Shown one piece after another: positions 3,838 through 10,211 of a DNA stretch of 26,293 nt. The notes under the pieces are model-generated. The model was not told where the DNA came from. It did not search any database and worked only from the letters and a program-made list of their open reading frames with translations. The number at the start of each line of letters is the position of its first letter. Position 1 is the first letter of the stretch. The position numbers and the translations under genes are program-made. Origin of the DNA: a virus; UHGV virus genome UHGV-0165251; one strand, written 5' to 3'.

Positions 3838-4001
3838 TGGTTGCCTCCTTTGCGCCACATCGCATTCAGATATTTGTTTTGATTCACTGATGGAAAAGAA
3901 TTTCTCTTAAGCAATTCCTCTCTCGATGGCATTGGCTTTACGCGTTGGCGAATAATCATTTCTGCCGGAAGAATGCCGGGATTGTATGCAAGTCCTCTCA
4001 T
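3834..4001 (-). CDS. hypothetical small protein (55 aa)
   Basis: ATG preceded by gaggaa at 7 nt; product [55 protein letters not shown]; stop overlaps the next start. Confidence 0.3.
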
Positions 4002-4011
4002 GGTAAATTCC

Positions 4012-4308
4012 TCAGTCATTACTGATAGCGCCATAGCGTGAGCGGTAATTACGCAGGCGCGGGTCGATATATTCAGGGAAGTGGCTATATGTTGCTTTGC
4101 GGAATGGTCGGATTGATGTCTGGTAAATTCGCTCTCGTTCTTCTTTCTCTGCAAGCCATATGCAGTGGCGAAATTCCTTTTCCTCTTTCGTTTCCTGCGG
4201 TAGCGACATTATCAGGTCGTAGTTTTTTCTGAATTTATCCAGCACCTCCGATACGGAATTGCCGGAACAGCGGCGCGCGTCGTCCGCACCATACAGAGGC
4301 GCTGGCAT
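4012..4308 (-). CDS. hypothetical protein (98 aa)
   Basis: ATG 9 nt after aagga, directly downstream of the ssb stop; no family recognised. Confidence 0.5.
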
Positions 4309-4331
4309 AATGGAATCCTTATGTTGCTACT

Positions 4332-4715
4332 TTAGAAGGGAATTGAATCGTCGTATTCAGGATGATTTTGATGATTACTACTTTGCTGCTGCGGGCCATT
4401 TCCTGAAGCTGCAAATCCAATCTTTGCATTCAGTAATTCAAGAGTGATTGATTGACCATTTTGCCCCTGATAAACATCAACCCTGATGTTTTCTCCGGTA
4501 ATTTCTACAATGCCACCTTCAACAAGAACACTACGGTAGTAATCCGCTTGCGCTCCCGGCTTGGCAAATACAACGGCGCTGTAGTTTGTCCATTCTTTCT
4601 TTTTTGTCTGGCGATCGTAATACTGAACGCCAGCACGGATGTTGAATCCGATATTTTCCCCGGCCTGAAACTCTCTTGCGGGCTTGTTTAGTCTTACAGT
4701 AATCGAATGTGCCAT
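4332..4715 (-). CDS. ssb: phage single-stranded DNA-binding protein (OB fold, acidic DDSIPF tail)
   Basis: 127-aa product from the ATG overlapping the erf stop (TAATG); C-terminal ...EYDDSIPF resembles the SSB acidic tail DDDIPF. Confidence 0.7.
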   Translation of the reverse strand: MAHSITVRLNKPAREFQAGENIGFNIRAGVQYYDRQTKKKEWTNYSAVVFAKPGAQADYYRSVLVEGGIVEITGENIRVDVYQGQNGQSITLELLNAKIGFAASGNGPQQQSSNHQNHPEYDDSIPF

Positions 4716-5320
4716 TAAGCAGCCGCTCCTTCTAATTCGTCTCGTCTGATGTTGTAAACGTCCTGCGCTTTGTGCTGCTCCGGTGTGCCTTCGAGCATCT
4801 TCCACGCTTTGGCGAACGCCTGTTTAAGCTCTTCCACGGTGTTTTTCTGCATTGCTGCGTCAGTGAATGCTTTTAGAACCTGTTCAGGTGTAGGTGATGG
4901 TTTTGATTGCTTTGCTGCTGCGTTCTGCTGATGTTTATGCTCGTCTGTATCTGCATCTTTCGCATCATCAATGCCGAACAAACCATTGAGGCAATACTTG
5001 CGTGCATAAGAGCTTGTAGCTCCCGTAACTTGTGCAGAATCCATTCCTTTCTTGCTTTCTTCCTCTCGTGCAAGAGCGGTTGCCGTATGACTGTTTTCGC
5101 CATCGGTAATAGTTGCCGTGGCTTTCACGTAATACCGATCACCAATCAACACAACTTCATCGCTGATTGATAAAAACAGACCATTCAGTAACGGCTTAAC
5201 GCCTTCAAGAATGTCTTCGCAGCTTCTGTATTTATATTTGCCGAATGAGTTGTACTGATTCTTTGGCGCGTTCAGATTCTCCTGAATAGCTGCCAGTCTT
5301 GCGTAAAATTCTTTGCTCAT
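4715..5320 (-). CDS. erf: Erf-family single-strand annealing recombinase
   Basis: Product from MSKEFYARLAAIQENLNAPKNQYNSFGKYKYRSCEDILEGVKPLL... closely matches P22 Erf as I recall it. Confidence 0.85.
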   Translation of the reverse strand: MSKEFYARLAAIQENLNAPKNQYNSFGKYKYRSCEDILEGVKPLLNGLFLSISDEVVLIGDRYYVKATATITDGENSHTATALAREEESKKGMDSAQVTGATSSYARKYCLNGLFGIDDAKDADTDEHKHQQNAAAKQSKPSPTPEQVLKAFTDAAMQKNTVEELKQAFAKAWKMLEGTPEQHKAQDVYNIRRDELEGAAA

Positions 5321-5729: not shown

Positions 5730-5845
5730 AATAAGACCTCAACTCTTTTCCATCCGTCACGTAATTTACGGGTGATTCGTTCAAGTAAAGATTCATTTAG
5801 TTGGAAGGCACCCATGCGAGCGCCTCCCGCGATTGCGTAAATCAT
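5714..5845 (-). CDS. cIII: CIII-like protease inhibitor
   Basis: Own translation MIYAIAGGARMGAFQLNESLLERITRKLRDGWKRVEVLLCAMK; core ESLLERITRKLRDGWKR matches lambda CIII; aagga 7 nt upstream. Confidence 0.7.
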   Translation of the reverse strand: MIYAIAGGARMGAFQLNESLLERITRKLRDGWKRVEVLLCAMK

Positions 5846-5869
5846 GGGTGGTTCCTTATGTTGGTTTTA

Positions 5870-6838
5870 TTAGTAGGTTATTTTTGTTGCGAATACTTCG
5901 CCTTTTACGATGGCTGTTATGATATTTTTAGCAACATCTTCTGATGCACCAACCTTGATAAGGTCAGCAAGTATTTTGTTATTTACTTCTTTCCGGTGAG
6001 CTTTATCCTTTGCTCTGCGCTCTTCTTCGTCCTTGATTCTTTTTTCTTCTGCTATTCTGGCTTGCTCTTTTGCTTCAGCATCGCGACGGATTTGTTCAGC
6101 ATCCTCCTGTGCTTTTCTGCGTTCTGCTTCAATTGCTGCCTGCTTTTCTCTTTCAGCTCGTTCTGCTGCCTCTTTTGCTTCGCGCTGTGCTCGTTGCTCG
6201 GCTTCAATGCGTTCACGCTCTGCACGTTCCGCTGCGGCCTTAGCTTCTGCTTCTCGCCTTGCTGCTGCTTCAATTTCGGCTTTTGCCTTTGCTTCGGCTT
6301 CTGCTCTGGCTTTCTCTTCAGCTTCTCTTTTTAAGCGCTCTTCATGCTCTCGCTTTTCCCGCTCCGTTTTGAGTCTTGCCTCTTCTCTTTGGCGGTCAAA
6401 TTCGCGATCCATCAAAATCGCTATTTCATGGTCAGACTCAATTTGCTTTGCGAGAGCTTCAGCTGCTGCCTTAGCTTCTTCTTCGGCTTTAATCCGCGCC
6501 TGTTCTTCCTCATAATCAGTAAGAGGCTGGCGTGCCTTGGCTTTCAGCTCATCAAGGCGATCACGCACTGTCTTGCGGTTAGCATCAATTAGCTTTGGAA
6601 TTTCTTTCAGTTCAGCAACAAGGTCTTTGCCAAGACCATCGAGATATGTTTTCGTCTGCGCAACTTTATACGCCAGAGAAGCGATCTCCTTTCTGCCCTT
6701 TGCCGTTGTGATATCAGGCACAAAGGACATAACTTCACGTTCAACCTTTTGAAGGATTTCTTCAATCTGGTCGGAAGACTGAAATACAGTCATTGCATTT
6801 GCTTTTTCAATAACAACTAAATCTGTTACTTCACTCAT
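5870..6838 (-). CDS. hypothetical coiled-coil protein with a long charged E/A/K/R-rich central region
   Basis: 322-aa ORF; ggagga RBS; ~150-aa stretch of AEAKAKAEIEAAARREAEAKAAAERAERE-type repeats between distinct N- and C-terminal domains. Confidence 0.75.
   Translation of the reverse strand: MSEVTDLVVIEKANAMTVFQSSDQIEEILQKVEREVMSFVPDITTAKGRKEIASLAYKVAQTKTYLDGLGKDLVAELKEIPKLIDANRKTVRDRLDELKAKARQPLTDYEEEQARIKAEEEAKAAAEALAKQIESDHEIAILMDREFDRQREEARLKTEREKREHEERLKREAEEKARAEAEAKAKAEIEAAARREAEAKAAAERAERERIEAEQRAQREAKEAAERAEREKQAAIEAERRKAQEDAEQIRRDAEAKEQARIAEEKRIKDEEERRAKDKAHRKEVNNKILADLIKVGASEDVAKNIITAIVKGEVFATKITY
5996..6400. repeat. low-complexity purine/pyrimidine-skewed repeat DNA encoding the charged repeat region
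   Basis: Imperfect reiteration of ctgcttc/ttctgc/ttttgc units; generates spurious long ORFs in other frames. Confidence 0.6.
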
Positions 6839-6850
6839 ATATCCTCCGTC

Positions 6851-6876
6851 AAAAAATTGCCCTCACATCGGAGGGC
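6851..6876 (-). terminator. rho-independent terminator
   Basis: Minus strand ttgccctc-cgatgt-gagggcaa followed by tttttt, immediately upstream of the RBS of the coiled-coil gene; the same hairpin precedes ea10 in lambda as I recall it. Confidence 0.55.
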
Positions 6877-6982
6877 AAAGAAGATTTCCAATAATCAGAA
6901 CAAGTCGGCTCCTGTTTAGTTACGAGCGACATTGCTCCGTGTATTCACTCGTTGGAATGAATACACAGTGCCTATTCGCAGC

Positions 6983-7309
6983 CTACATAATCATTCCGGT
7001 TATTATTACCATTTCAATATCACTATCTTTCATAATGATTGGTGTTGAGTTATCAACTTTACTTTTACTCCATTTTCCTGCATCAGTTTTTACCGCTCCA
7101 CAATAAGAAAGCCAATCATCATCACAATGTTCTGGATCACTGATTCTGACAAGAACTCGTGATAGTGCTTTTTCGATACTTTCATCACAATTAGCATTTG
7201 TGTAATTGCCGTGAGACAATTTCAAATCGTTAACTTCATCTTCATTGGCATCAAAAATATAGATTTCAGTCGACTCTGGAACATTTTCATAAACCATTAA
7301 AACTTTCAT
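6983..7309 (-). CDS. hypothetical acidic protein (108 aa) at the position lambda uses for ral
   Basis: ORF rich in D/E (net charge roughly -11 by my count); no family recognised. Confidence 0.6.
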   Translation of the reverse strand: MKVLMVYENVPESTEIYIFDANEDEVNDLKLSHGNYTNANCDESIEKALSRVLVRISDPEHCDDDWLSYCGAVKTDAGKWSKSKVDNSTPIIMKDSDIEMVIITGMIM

Positions 7310-7324
7310 TTTTACCCCGTATTG

Positions 7325-7352
7325 TTTATGCCAAAAATAAAGGCCTACTATG
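7325..7352. repeat. 28-bp direct repeat, copy 1 (tttatgccaaaaataaaggcctactatg)
   Basis: 27/28 identical to copy 2 at 8095..8122; the same motif lies downstream of ral in lambda as I recall it. Confidence 0.7.
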
Positions 7353-7368
7353 CGTCCTAGTAGAATGC

Positions 7369-7827
7369 CTAATTTTCTGTTTCTTGGTTGTGTCCAAAGT
7401 TATATTCAATATCTGGTGTTGATGTATCAATATTCTTCATCCCATCAACAAGAGTTGATACAACAGCCAAATCTTGTTTGATTCTCATTAAATGGTATTT
7501 CTTCCGGCGCAATAAACTTTCAATGGCAAGTTTCTTCGTTGGGAATGCAAAAGATCTTTCTGCATTTTTTGCTACTTTCTTAATTTCATATCTATTTCTC
7601 TTTTGTTTCCATTCCTGTAACCACTGATTTGGTGCTGGTTTAAAATTAACGATCCAATGCGCAGGAACCAACCATGCATAATGCTCTGTCTGATGAAAAG
7701 CTATATATTGAAGTGCGAATATTTTGATTCCATCTTCTTCAACTGTCGCCTGGAATCTCCAGAAAACAGGCATTCCATCATGTTCAGTTTCTGATTCAGG
7801 AAAAGGTACGCTCCATGATATTGTCAT
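7369..7827 (-). CDS. hypothetical protein (152 aa), second gene of the repeat-flanked cassette
   Basis: Start overlaps the upstream stop (ATGA); no family recognised. Confidence 0.65.
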   Translation of the reverse strand: MTISWSVPFPESETEHDGMPVFWRFQATVEEDGIKIFALQYIAFHQTEHYAWLVPAHWIVNFKPAPNQWLQEWKQKRNRYEIKKVAKNAERSFAFPTKKLAIESLLRRKKYHLMRIKQDLAVVSTLVDGMKNIDTSTPDIEYNFGHNQETEN

Positions 7828-8078
7828 ATCTCACCTTCAAGAGCTTTGCTGATTGCTGACAGTGCTTTCGATACTTCATCAGGATAATGGTCATTCCATT
7901 TTTGCTTGTATGCCTTGTTTAGCATCGCTTGCAGAGCTTCGAGCAAATCAGGAGCTGCCTCCATCAATCTCACATCACCTCGATGGATGGTTGTATCGTC
8001 AAACGTGAAATAAACCCCATCATCGTTAAATCCAGCGCCAACAACATTCCATGGCCTTTTCATTCTTCCTACTGTCAT
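7824..8078 (-). CDS. hypothetical protein (84 aa), first gene of the repeat-flanked cassette
   Basis: gaggtga RBS; translationally coupled to the 152-aa gene; no family recognised. Confidence 0.65.
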   Translation of the reverse strand: MTVGRMKRPWNVVGAGFNDDGVYFTFDDTTIHRGDVRLMEAAPDLLEALQAMLNKAYKQKWNDHYPDEVSKALSAISKALEGEI

Positions 8079-8094
8079 TATTCACCTCTGTGTA

Positions 8095-8122
8095 TTTATG
8101 CCAAAAATAAAGGCCGACTATG
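8095..8122. repeat. 28-bp direct repeat, copy 2 (tttatgccaaaaataaaggccgactatg)
   Basis: Direct repeat of 7325..7352; contains the stop codon of the 8118..8432 gene. Confidence 0.7.
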
Positions 8123-8432
8123 TGGCTTTATATCTGCGCACTGAAATAATTGGGCAGTGTGTAATTCCAGCAGTCTTTTCCCATCTCAACAATGGGATGC
8201 GGAATACTTCGAACTCCACCTTCCCGATATGGTCGTTTTGGAAATCCTTTTTCCCCACCAACCAAACCTTTTCAAATCTACGCTCTATAAGGAAAGCTGA
8301 TGACCATCCATATTTAGAACCAGCTTTTAACGCTTCCTTTTTTGTCGGAAAGGTTGTAACAATGGAAATTATCTCATCAACTCGGAGGCTTAAAAGATTA
8401 TTGTCTTTAAAGCTAATTCCGTTCGACGCCAT
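8118..8432 (-). CDS. hypothetical protein (104 aa) immediately downstream of N
   Basis: Start 3 nt after the N stop; no family recognised. Confidence 0.55.
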   Translation of the reverse strand: MASNGISFKDNNLLSLRVDEIISIVTTFPTKKEALKAGSKYGWSSAFLIERRFEKVWLVGKKDFQNDHIGKVEFEVFRIPLLRWEKTAGITHCPIISVRRYKAT

Positions 8433-8435
8433 AAT

Positions 8436-8741
8436 TCATCCCTCATACAGTGGTTTGCTGCCTAATTTCATTTTCTGGCGACCAACACAAGTCACACCCA
8501 TTTCACTGCGTGGCTTGCGGTAGTAAATACGATTCTGTTTACGCTCGACTTCTTCTGACTTCTTGCAGCGAAGGCTTCCGAGTGATGCTGCTTTATCTGC
8601 TCTGACGCAACCAGAGAGCTTTAGCGCAATTTTTCGCGCCAGTCGCTGCTCTTGCATTGCCTGTTCACGTTGAGCCTGTCTGCGTGCTCTGCGGCGATTT
8701 CTGGCGTTATCGTCAGCCAGATATGTAATGACTACTGTCAT
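8436..8741 (-). CDS. N: N-type transcription antiterminator
   Basis: N-terminal arginine-rich motif NARNRRRARRQAQRE; C-terminal YRKPRSEMGVTCVGRQKMKLGSKPL resembles lambda N (YSKPGERGITCSGRQKIKGKSIPLI). Confidence 0.8.
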   Translation of the reverse strand: MTVVITYLADDNARNRRRARRQAQREQAMQEQRLARKIALKLSGCVRADKAASLGSLRCKKSEEVERKQNRIYYRKPRSEMGVTCVGRQKMKLGSKPLYEG

Positions 8742-8849
8742 GTTGACCTCCGATGATTGACTTTGGCGGTGACGCGCCGGGTGCTTATCTTCCGGTTGCT
8801 GTCGTGCAGCTGCACTTCACGTCACCCCAAAGCCAACTACTCTTTGGTT

Positions 8850-8889
8850 CCCGCATTTCGGCGGGACAATCCCATCAATGTTAAAGAGC
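8850..8889 (-). promoter_or_regulatory. nutL (boxA gctctttaa plus boxB hairpin cccgccgaaatgcggg)
   Basis: The same boxA and boxB sequences recur at 10519..10561 on the plus strand (nutR); nutL lies between pL and N. Confidence 0.6.
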
Positions 8890-8935
8890 CTGCCAATCTT
8901 TTCCGTTTGGCTTCCAGCTTCCTGCTGATGGCTAA

Positions 8936-9022
8936 AGAATACTGTAGGTATTTTATTGTGTAAATACCCAAGGTATTTATTTTTGATGAAATAATGATAA
9001 GCAAATGAATACAAAGGATATT
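8936..9022 (-). promoter_or_regulatory. oL/pL: three operators AATAC-N5-GTATT (8938..8952, 8963..8977, 9008..9022); pL -35 tttaca and -10 tattct
   Basis: Palindromes of the same consensus as in oR; putative -10 and -35 (17-bp spacer) overlap OL1 and OL2. Confidence 0.55.
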
Positions 9023-9108
9023 TATTTTTTCGGTGTCTGCTTGTTCAGTGCTTTTTATGCGGGATATGTGAAGTGGATCCCGATAGCTATTGCTGCCGGG
9101 ATTATAGG

Positions 9109-9494: not shown

Positions 9495-10211
9495 TCAAAC
9501 CAGCCTTAGTTTTGTCTCAATTGCAACGCCTATAATCTTGCAGTTTCCATTGATTGGCACGAGAGGCCATGCAGGGTTAAGTCCCTTGAGGTATTTATTT
9601 CCTCCGTCGATTATCAGCTTCTTGAATGTTGCCTCGTTAGAGTCAGAAAGTTTTGCTATGACCAAGCTGCCGTTGATCGCCTCCCTTCCGGTATCGAAAA
9701 GAACGAATGTTCCCTCTGGAATGCTTAACCCAACCGGTGCCGTCATTGAATCACCTTCCACTTTAAGCCAGAACGCATTACCTTGAATATGCGCGTCAGA
9801 CTCAAGCCAAACATCTATGTCTTTAATGGTGTATGGTTCGCATGCTTCACACCACGAGCCAGCCTGGATACTGCTTAACACCGGATACCTCTTTCCTGCT
9901 CTGTATTCCCCTGCATACCTTACGTTGGCATCGCTCTTAAGGCTTTCTGCCTGTTCTGCAACCTTGGCAGCAATTGACTGGCTAAAATCAGCAATTGAGA
10001 CTTGCAACAATCGTGCAAAACCAGATGCAACCTCAACGTTTAGCGCATTTCTGCCATTAAGATAATGCCCTACCGCTCCTTGGGTGATACCCAGTTCATC
10101 AGCGATTGAGTATTGGGTTATTCCCAATTCTTTCTTTTTTGACTCATACAAAGCCTTAAGCCGCTTAGCGTCTTCCAGCTGTTCTGTCGTCAGTGATTTT
10201 TTATTTTCCAT
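9495..10211 (-). CDS. cI: CI repressor (HTH domain plus LexA/S24-type autocleavage domain)
   Basis: 238 aa; N-terminal HTH (ITQYSIADELGITQGAVGHYLNG), C-terminal GDSM serine and K dyad region (GDSMTAPVG...VIAKL...TFKKL). Confidence 0.9.
   Translation of the reverse strand: MENKKSLTTEQLEDAKRLKALYESKKKELGITQYSIADELGITQGAVGHYLNGRNALNVEVASGFARLLQVSIADFSQSIAAKVAEQAESLKSDANVRYAGEYRAGKRYPVLSSIQAGSWCEACEPYTIKDIDVWLESDAHIQGNAFWLKVEGDSMTAPVGLSIPEGTFVLFDTGREAINGSLVIAKLSDSNEATFKKLIIDGGNKYLKGLNPAWPLVPINGNCKIIGVAIETKLRLV

Follow-up and report, generated by a model that had tools for sequence, protein, structure and literature searches.

A 28-bp direct repeat in the leftward early operon of the prophage analysed here most probably represents two copies of the standard intergenic linker of the lambdoid pL accessory interval, the variable stretch that runs from N to PreS/tL2a, with the linker serving as a site of homologous recombination. 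The two genes that lie between the copies, orf84 and orf152, are, as the comparisons below indicate, separate modules for which the linker is the junction. The phenomenon itself is already recognised, in the boundary sequences of lambdoid phages and the gene-by-gene mosaicism of the pL accessory region, and the locus is a tidy example of it, not a surprise.

The repeat and its place in the pL operon

The window, by which we mean the whole stretch of 26,293 nucleotides that was analysed (UHGV virus genome UHGV-0165251), is a P22-like lambdoid prophage, and the genes in question belong to its leftward early (pL) operon, on the minus strand. Prophage genes in the window include those for a lambda-type integrase (50-1120), Ead/Ea22, Abc2, ERF, replication protein O, a DnaB-type helicase and a P22-type portal, with a cI-like repressor at 9495-10211 on the minus strand. 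Followed in the pL direction, the order is N-like gene, orf104, linker, orf84, orf152, linker, orf108, a conserved 128-bp segment, a TolA-like gene, and cIII with kil.

The promoter-proximal border of the variable accessory interval is the gene for the N-like antitermination protein (8436..8741, minus strand; phrog_271). Its distal border is the PreS/LPR1 small-RNA region with the tL2a intrinsic terminator (6851..6978, minus strand; tL2a hairpin at 6857-6878), identified from the match of positions 6851-6971 to lambda 33925-34045 at 97.5% identity. PreS (LPR1) is an Hfq-dependent small RNA encoded, together with tL2a, in the lambda ral-ea10 intergenic region (bioRxiv 10.1101/2024.10.31.621285). 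The same segment is present in 933W, phi367, DP051, Sf101 and most of the viral loci compared (given below by number, with the prefix L), and in a diverged form in P22; Rfam gave no family match anywhere in the window, the PreS segment included.

Four accessory genes of unknown function occupy the interval, all on the minus strand. Located 5' of linker copy 2 is orf104 (8118..8432; phrog_16670), in a slot held in other phages by Nmad5, ral or other genes, whilst orf108 (6983..7309; phrog_4658) is located 3' of linker copy 1 and is found behind the same linker in L024, L048 and L082, each time with a different upstream gene. Between the copies are orf84 (7824..8078; Y8K6/XkdD family, PF27050 Phage_P22_Y8K6, phrog_1273) and orf152 (7369..7827; phrog_1636, the 933W L0079 family).

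The repeat copies occupy positions 7325-7352 and 8095-8122 and are identical at 27 of 28 positions (96%), 770 nt apart from start to start; a repeat finder and a pattern search thus bear out the figures given in a preliminary description of this DNA. The pattern search, allowing up to three mismatches, found no third copy in the whole 26.3-kb window, and 100 dinucleotide-preserving shuffles of the window contained no match to the 28-mer, which is non-random and restricted within the window to the pL operon. Copy 2 (8095..8122, minus strand; sense strand CATAGTCGGCCTTTATTTTTGGCATAAA) is the orf104/orf84 spacer: it includes the orf104 stop codon TAG (8118-8120) and is followed on its 3' side by a Shine-Dalgarno sequence and the orf84 start codon, ending at 8076. 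Copy 1 (7325..7352, minus strand; sense strand CATAGTAGGCCTTTATTTTTGGCATAAA) is the orf152/orf108 spacer, beginning 17 nt past the orf152 stop codon and followed 3' by a ribosome-binding site and the orf108 start codon, ending at 7307. Both copies are therefore intergenic, lying between stop codon and start codon. Since an ENA contig is 100% identical to the window across positions 5800-9100 and the 84-aa protein itself is encoded on 12 contigs, the repeat arrangement is genuine and not an oddity of assembly.

A 141-aa plus-strand ORF (8098-8523) starts at an ATG inside copy 2. This ORF, which is antisense to the conserved orf104, we consider spurious; the matching ATG of copy 1 opens a frame of 10 codons only.

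The linker in other phages

The core of the repeat is a 21-mer that reads GGCCTTTATTTTTGGCATAAA on the sense strand. In lambda this is located immediately past the ral stop codon (34062-34082), as the preliminary description had stated, and the exact 21-mer is found in at least 120 viral contigs, which supports and extends the idea of a conserved linker. As the scan of viral sequences demanded an exact 21-mer, variation in the linker is under-sampled. When 120 instances among the matches listed were sorted by their flanks, around 12 upstream and 13 downstream classes were seen, in 34 combinations. The upstream genes among the matches listed comprise two types of ral, Nmad5, orf104, orf152 and several more; the downstream partners among them are the PreS segment directly (the lambda layout), orf152, orf108, orf84, several Y8K6 paralogues and others.

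Comparison of the window with 933W, phi367, DP051, AZ146, Sf101, L048, L059, L082, L104 and L135 places the breakpoints of homology at 7345-7358, 8095, 8115-8126 and 7830-7836. Those at 7345-7358, 8095 and 8115-8126 coincide with the edges of the linker. The linker thus has the properties by which boundary sequences are recognised, being intergenic, present in many phages with unrelated flanks and coincident with breakpoints.

These distribution data already contradict the simplest account of the repeat, namely that it arose by local duplication or slippage in one lineage and has no wider meaning. Two near-identical copies 770 bp apart in one operon are what such an event would leave behind, but lambda and the viral contigs counted above have the motif as well, and each copy is found elsewhere separately with its own flank: orf152-linker in L059 and L104, linker-orf108 in L024, L048 and L082, and orf104-linker-orf84 in L125 and L126. 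We regard a purely local origin as scarcely credible.

In a scan of a genome collection the motif was essentially limited to enterobacterial prophages, its matches in unrelated taxa being mostly lambda DNA itself. Identity to lambda is at least 98.2%, and mostly at least 99.6%, in loci L136-L155, which are assigned to Pseudoxanthomonas, Shewanella, Pseudomonas, Neobacillus, Oceanobacillus, Kitasatospora and others; several of these loci are on contigs of ~48.5 kb, some with a coverage near 1 in the contig name. These loci look like contamination of assemblies with lambda control DNA.

An empty site and a second bounded gene

If the linker is where accessory genes come and go, relatives should exist in which the site is empty exactly at the repeat, a comparison that the preliminary description had proposed. 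The query used was the synthetic deletion product of recombination between the two repeat copies, orf104-linker-orf108. It is matched in one piece, over 100% of its length and at 98.8% identity, by E. coli O25:NM strain 2014EL-1343-2. In the prophage of this strain there is a single hybrid linker, the left flank of which corresponds to copy 2 and the right flank to copy 1, and window positions 6851-7352 and 8095-8967 map to the overlapping intervals 3871-4370 and 4343-5256. Because both flanks meet at this one hybrid linker, the presence or absence of the genes is defined exactly at the repeat. Elsewhere the 2014EL-1343-2 prophage is a different mosaic, having no TolA-like gene and an N region that is ~84% identical, and, as it is itself another mosaic, the direction of the change (insertion or deletion) is not readable from it.

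A second, independent case involves a different gene. In nine viral loci (L008, L009, L051, L054, L055, L064, L073, L081 and L105) the order is ral, a diverged linker, a gene for a 149-aa membrane protein, an exact linker and PreS, with the two linker copies 494-522 bp apart. A homologue of the 149-aa protein, with two predicted transmembrane segments, is among the genes reported as screened by Silas et al. (bioRxiv 10.1101/2023.04.06.535777).

orf84 and orf152 as separate modules

The preliminary description had pictured the interval between the repeat copies as a two-gene cassette encoding a functional pair. Its starting point is correct: two translationally coupled ORFs of 84 and 152 aa, the stop and start codons of which overlap as ATGA on the minus strand, are indeed present between the copies, and both are real, conserved genes, with orf152 belonging to phrog_1636 and orf84 to phrog_1273 and PF27050, with 188 homologues. 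The claim that they form a pair fares less well. E. coli genomes with orf152 number in the hundreds; the gene usually stands by itself, and often there is no linker. Both genes are present in just 20 of the 666 complete E. coli genomes that match any part of the orf84-orf152 region and together in none of the 89 phage records that match it, all of which have orf152 alone.

Partners and order also vary. In 933W, L0079 (the orf152 homologue) is located directly between N and the 128-bp PreS/tL2a segment with the linker on neither side; in phi367 the order is ral-linker-orf152; and in DP051 it is N-Nmad5-linker-orf109-orf152, where orf109 resembles orf84 in its C-terminal part only. AZ146-type prophages have the arrangement N-Nmad5-linker-orf84-orf152-PreS, with a single copy of the linker, the upstream one. 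In L059 and L104 the gene order is reversed (N-orf152-linker-Y8K6 paralogue). As for orf84, the gene that comes next is an unrelated one of 66 aa in Sf101 and in two E. coli prophages; in L125 and L126 orf84 follows orf104-linker, and in P22 its homologue orf78 lies behind ral and a diverged linker and overlaps the unrelated orf87. Since the genes occur in relatives without the flanking repeat (933W has no copy and AZ146 only one), the cassette reading fails by the criterion that the preliminary description itself had set.

The translational coupling, too, appears to be a local feature. The orf84/orf152 junction differs by a 4-nt indel from those of AZ146 and DP051, and, as it stands in the window, matches the N/L0079 junction of 933W exactly. 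This indel between lineages and the 933W-identical junction indicate that the ATGA overlap is the product of a join at the Shine-Dalgarno-like GGAGGTGA, and not a conserved trait of a pair; on this comparison, the overlap is specific to the window's lineage.

Could orf84 and orf152 nevertheless be one functional pair (toxin-antitoxin, anti-defence or host-modulating) that was acquired as a unit at the linker? The site is empty exactly at the repeat in 2014EL-1343-2, the genes are coupled in the window and found together in the 20 complete genomes, and in AZ146 the pair is contiguous at 96.7% identity. The interval is, moreover, a recognised accessory region that also houses ral and, in some relatives, Nmad5. 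Against this, most genomes by far, and every matching phage record, have orf152 on its own, the partners of orf84 in Sf101 and P22 are unrelated, the order can be reversed, the AZ146 pair has only one copy of the linker, and the 4-nt indel means that the coupling is not conserved. Neither protein shows significant similarity to toxin-antitoxin, defence or anti-defence proteins in searches of Pfam, NCBIfam, PADLOC and PDB sequences or in fold searches, so the suggestion of a toxin-antitoxin or anti-defence function drew no support. Silas et al. (bioRxiv 10.1101/2023.04.06.535777) included the orf84 homologue of Sf101, AII27858.1, in their screen of 200 accessory genes, and their main text mentions no phenotype for it. 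We consider acquisition as a functional pair improbable.

Anatomy of the linker

The 28-mer is the core of a longer element. When one representative per flank class was compared, conservation extended from position -12 relative to the 21-mer (GGCCGCATAGTC) to position +17 (CAACAGAGGnnAAnATG) and fell to background beyond these points, showing that the linker is a complete stop-to-start spacer of ~50 nt, GGCCGCATAGTC-GGCCTTTATTTTTGGCATAAA-CAACAGAGGnnAAnATG. Four parts can be distinguished. The first, GGCCGCATAG, comprises the end of the upstream gene, with its final two codons and its stop codon inside a hairpin loop. The second is a U-rich tract, TTTATTTTT, and the third, GGCATAAA, separates this tract from the fourth, CAACAGAGGnnAAnATG, from which the downstream gene takes both its Shine-Dalgarno sequence and its start codon, at a fixed distance.

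Most copies of the linker fold into a hairpin that ends in GGCC and has the U-tract immediately 3' of it; the hairpin runs into UUUAUUUUU without a gap. Two alternative stems pair with the fixed GGCC, these being GGCCG/CGGCC and, after ral, GGCTGCC/GGTGGCC (GGCUGCC/GGUGGCC in RNA). Folding energies for the consensus form are -11 and -13.9 kcal/mol in constructs of ~40 nt and range from -7.7 to -13.6 kcal/mol for the 24-nt hairpin segment. A ΔG of -8 or lower with the 3' GGCC paired was obtained for 31% of linker copies, compared with 3% after shuffling of the upstream arm. The consensus linker hairpin and its U-tract are, by this pattern, terminator-like. The copies in the window have weak or degraded hairpins (-3.7 and -5.9 kcal/mol), as does that of lambda (-4.3 kcal/mol), and a terminator scan called neither window copy. 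Given these weak hairpins, terminator function at the window copies is doubtful. Overall, the linker probably supplies expression signals: the next gene would take its translation start from it, and its hairpin, weakly terminator-like or RNA-stabilising, would be read through by N-modified polymerase.

These features raise the possibility that the linker is maintained mainly by selection for a cis-acting function, as an intrinsic terminator, an RNA 3'-end or processing site or a translation enhancer, and not as a recombination site. The occurrence of the hairpin and U-tract in two stem versions, both pairing with the fixed GGCC, fits this well, as does the fixed distance to the Shine-Dalgarno sequence and start codon; a U-rich tract 5' of a Shine-Dalgarno sequence is a typical feature of translational enhancers. 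However, near-perfect identity over 21-50 nt in many gene contexts exceeds what such signals need, and the weak hairpins of the window and lambda copies and the result of the terminator scan also count against it. We think this explanation possible, if on the doubtful side; it is in any case compatible with recombination at the same sequence.

A promoter was also considered. At copy 2 there is a promoter-like match, TTGGCA-16-AATAAT, that agrees with the consensus at 10 of 12 positions, but its -10 element overlaps with the start codon of orf84, nothing comparable is present at copy 1, and promoter-like sites are not in excess in the region (5, compared with 6.2 in shuffled sequences). The linker was accordingly rejected as a promoter. 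The same evidence bears on the broader suggestion that the motif is either the promoter of a moron or the dedicated site of a site-specific recombinase, as in integrons. The cassette-like presence and absence of genes would suit such a site, just as the match at copy 2 would suit a promoter. Yet no recombinase is tied to the interval, the sole integrase in the window being the lambda-type enzyme mentioned above, and an imperfect inverted repeat of the attC type is missing from the motif. Either version is very unlikely.

A model for gene exchange at the linker

Homologous recombination at the linker remains the reading that we favour, its mechanism being inferred from comparative patterns. A near-identical stretch of 28-50 nt, varied combinations of unrelated flanks, breakpoints at its edges and an exact empty site are the traces that such recombination leaves. 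The linker would offer a near-identical stretch of 28-50 bp at which co-infecting or resident lambdoid phages could recombine, by means of host RecA or a phage single-strand-annealing protein such as the ERF that this phage encodes, and accessory genes would be exchanged singly at this point. The core appears as a direct repeat with a spacing of 770 bp because the phage carries two linker-bounded junctions in tandem. The interval between them is itself composite, with orf84 and orf152 joined at the Shine-Dalgarno-like microhomology GGAGGTGA, and in other genomes each of the two moves on its own. Recombination across the direct repeat is further predicted, as a side effect, to delete both genes at once and to give orf104-linker-orf108, the layout seen in 2014EL-1343-2. 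Other routes of exchange also operate, since some junctions have no linker, among them those of N/orf152/PreS in 933W and the orf84/orf152 microhomology.

Short conserved boundary sequences have been proposed as the recombination points of lambdoid mosaicism (Clark et al. 2001; Susskind and Botstein 1978; both as described in PMC3029335), and Red-beta, with a minimum of ~30 bp, acts on short or diverged sequences (PMC3945230). A stronger version of the model can also be envisaged, in which the linker is a selected, standardised connector that both expresses the gene behind it and is a preferred substrate of phage annealing proteins. The N-to-PreS interval would then be a recombinase-free counter-defence cassette array, in which the uncharacterised orf84, orf152, orf104 and orf108 take their place alongside ral and Nmad5. 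We give this version only an outside chance.

Relation to known systems

The closest parallel is with the boundary sequences of lambdoid phages (Susskind and Botstein; Clark et al. 2001 on HK620; via PMC3029335), which are likewise short conserved junction sequences with non-homologous flanks and have been proposed as places where homologous recombination reassorts modules. Compared with boundary sequences as PMC3029335 describes them, the element in the window differs in being a full stop-to-start spacer of ~50 nt, in being present in two copies in one genome and in having a documented, exact empty site. The locus is also situated in the same hotspot as the ral accessory regions of Silas et al. 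(bioRxiv 10.1101/2023.04.06.535777), in which the orf84 homologue, its 66-aa neighbour and the 149-aa homologue were screened; the hotspot is defined there by gene variability and phenotypes, and a shared linker does not feature in the main account. In the lambda ral-ea10 region (bioRxiv 10.1101/2024.10.31.621285) the linker is found directly upstream of PreS, which the window retains as its distal border. The two differ in content: in the window the stretch from N to PreS contains four accessory genes and two linkers, whereas in lambda it contains orf28, ral, the oppositely oriented sieB and a single linker.

Two further comparisons are looser. As with integron cassettes, a short sequence that recurs within one operon is where single genes come and go, but the interval contains neither an integron integrase nor attC, and exchange would depend on homology. 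Morons, the extra genes in lambdoid phages reportedly described by Hendrix and Juhala, are similar in being optional genes of unknown function that are present or absent at the same position among relatives. A classic moron is expressed from the prophage and brings its own promoter and terminator. In contrast, the genes in the window are in line within the N-antiterminated pL operon, with no convincing promoter found in the region and only weak flanking hairpins. The earlier description of the interval as a moron cassette at a conserved linker therefore survives in part: the linker and the presence/absence of genes stand, the single two-gene cassette does not.

Current understanding of phage mosaicism is unchanged by this locus. 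What it offers is a clean sequence-level illustration of the swapping of single accessory genes, with a shared spacer, many combinations of flanks and an exact empty site, and recombination at very short homologies could be measured with it. Its four small genes of unknown function in the ral hotspot are candidates for host-interaction screens.

The accessory genes and their neighbours

The assignment of orf84 to PF27050 comes from a precomputed match on an identical protein, and NCBI names the family 'XkdD/Y8K6 family'. BLASTP aligns orf84 with P22 orf78, the founder of PF27050, at 31% identity (E 5e-7). The conserved parts of the protein are an AAPDLLEAL helix and the C-terminus AISKALGEE, and the predicted structure is a beta-hairpin with two helices (mean pLDDT 73). 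Remote homology searches and structure prediction, which the preliminary description had recommended for both proteins, were uninformative as to function. By hhalign, orf84 and orf152 are unrelated to each other (probability 1.6%).

In the Y8K6 family the C-terminus reads ...ALG(E/G/K)E, and the codons that specify it (GGAGGTGA-like) serve at the same time as the Shine-Dalgarno sequence of a closely coupled gene downstream. The identity of that gene varies, being orf152 in the window (7824-7850, minus strand), the 66-aa gene in Sf101 and orf87 in P22 (locus L158, 3560-3600).

The match of orf152 to phrog_1636 is strong (E 6.5e-107). Its homologues are 58-97% identical, some of them from Pectobacterium, Brenneria and Rosenbergiella. 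In the window, a TGG to TAG change (7369-7380) has removed the last four residues relative to the 156-158-aa family, which ends ...ETENWVFY; the same shortened 152-aa product is called on other contigs with this arrangement. Among 1.84 billion representatives, a profile search picked out 78 distant relatives, mostly of 130-155 aa, and none of the ten scanned has an informative Pfam domain. We also considered whether orf152 might be the 'orf184' of Silas et al. (bioRxiv 10.1101/2023.04.06.535777), a gene of the ral accessory region that is reported there to trigger gop-beta-cII. This was rejected: orf184 starts MEALVVERSEDGYWT.

Downstream of PreS, the TolA-like gene (5870-6838, minus strand) encodes a 322-aa coiled coil rich in Ala, Glu and Lys and has internal nucleotide repeats. 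It is annotated elsewhere as 'cell envelope biogenesis protein TolA' and occupies the slot of lambda ea10 and P22 gene 17. At the other border of the interval, the 3' end of the N-like ORF contains 47 nt (8449-8495, minus strand) that are 100% identical to 933W N at and just past its stop codon, the comparison of the two N regions giving no further match beyond this stretch. These 47 nt may be another boundary sequence.
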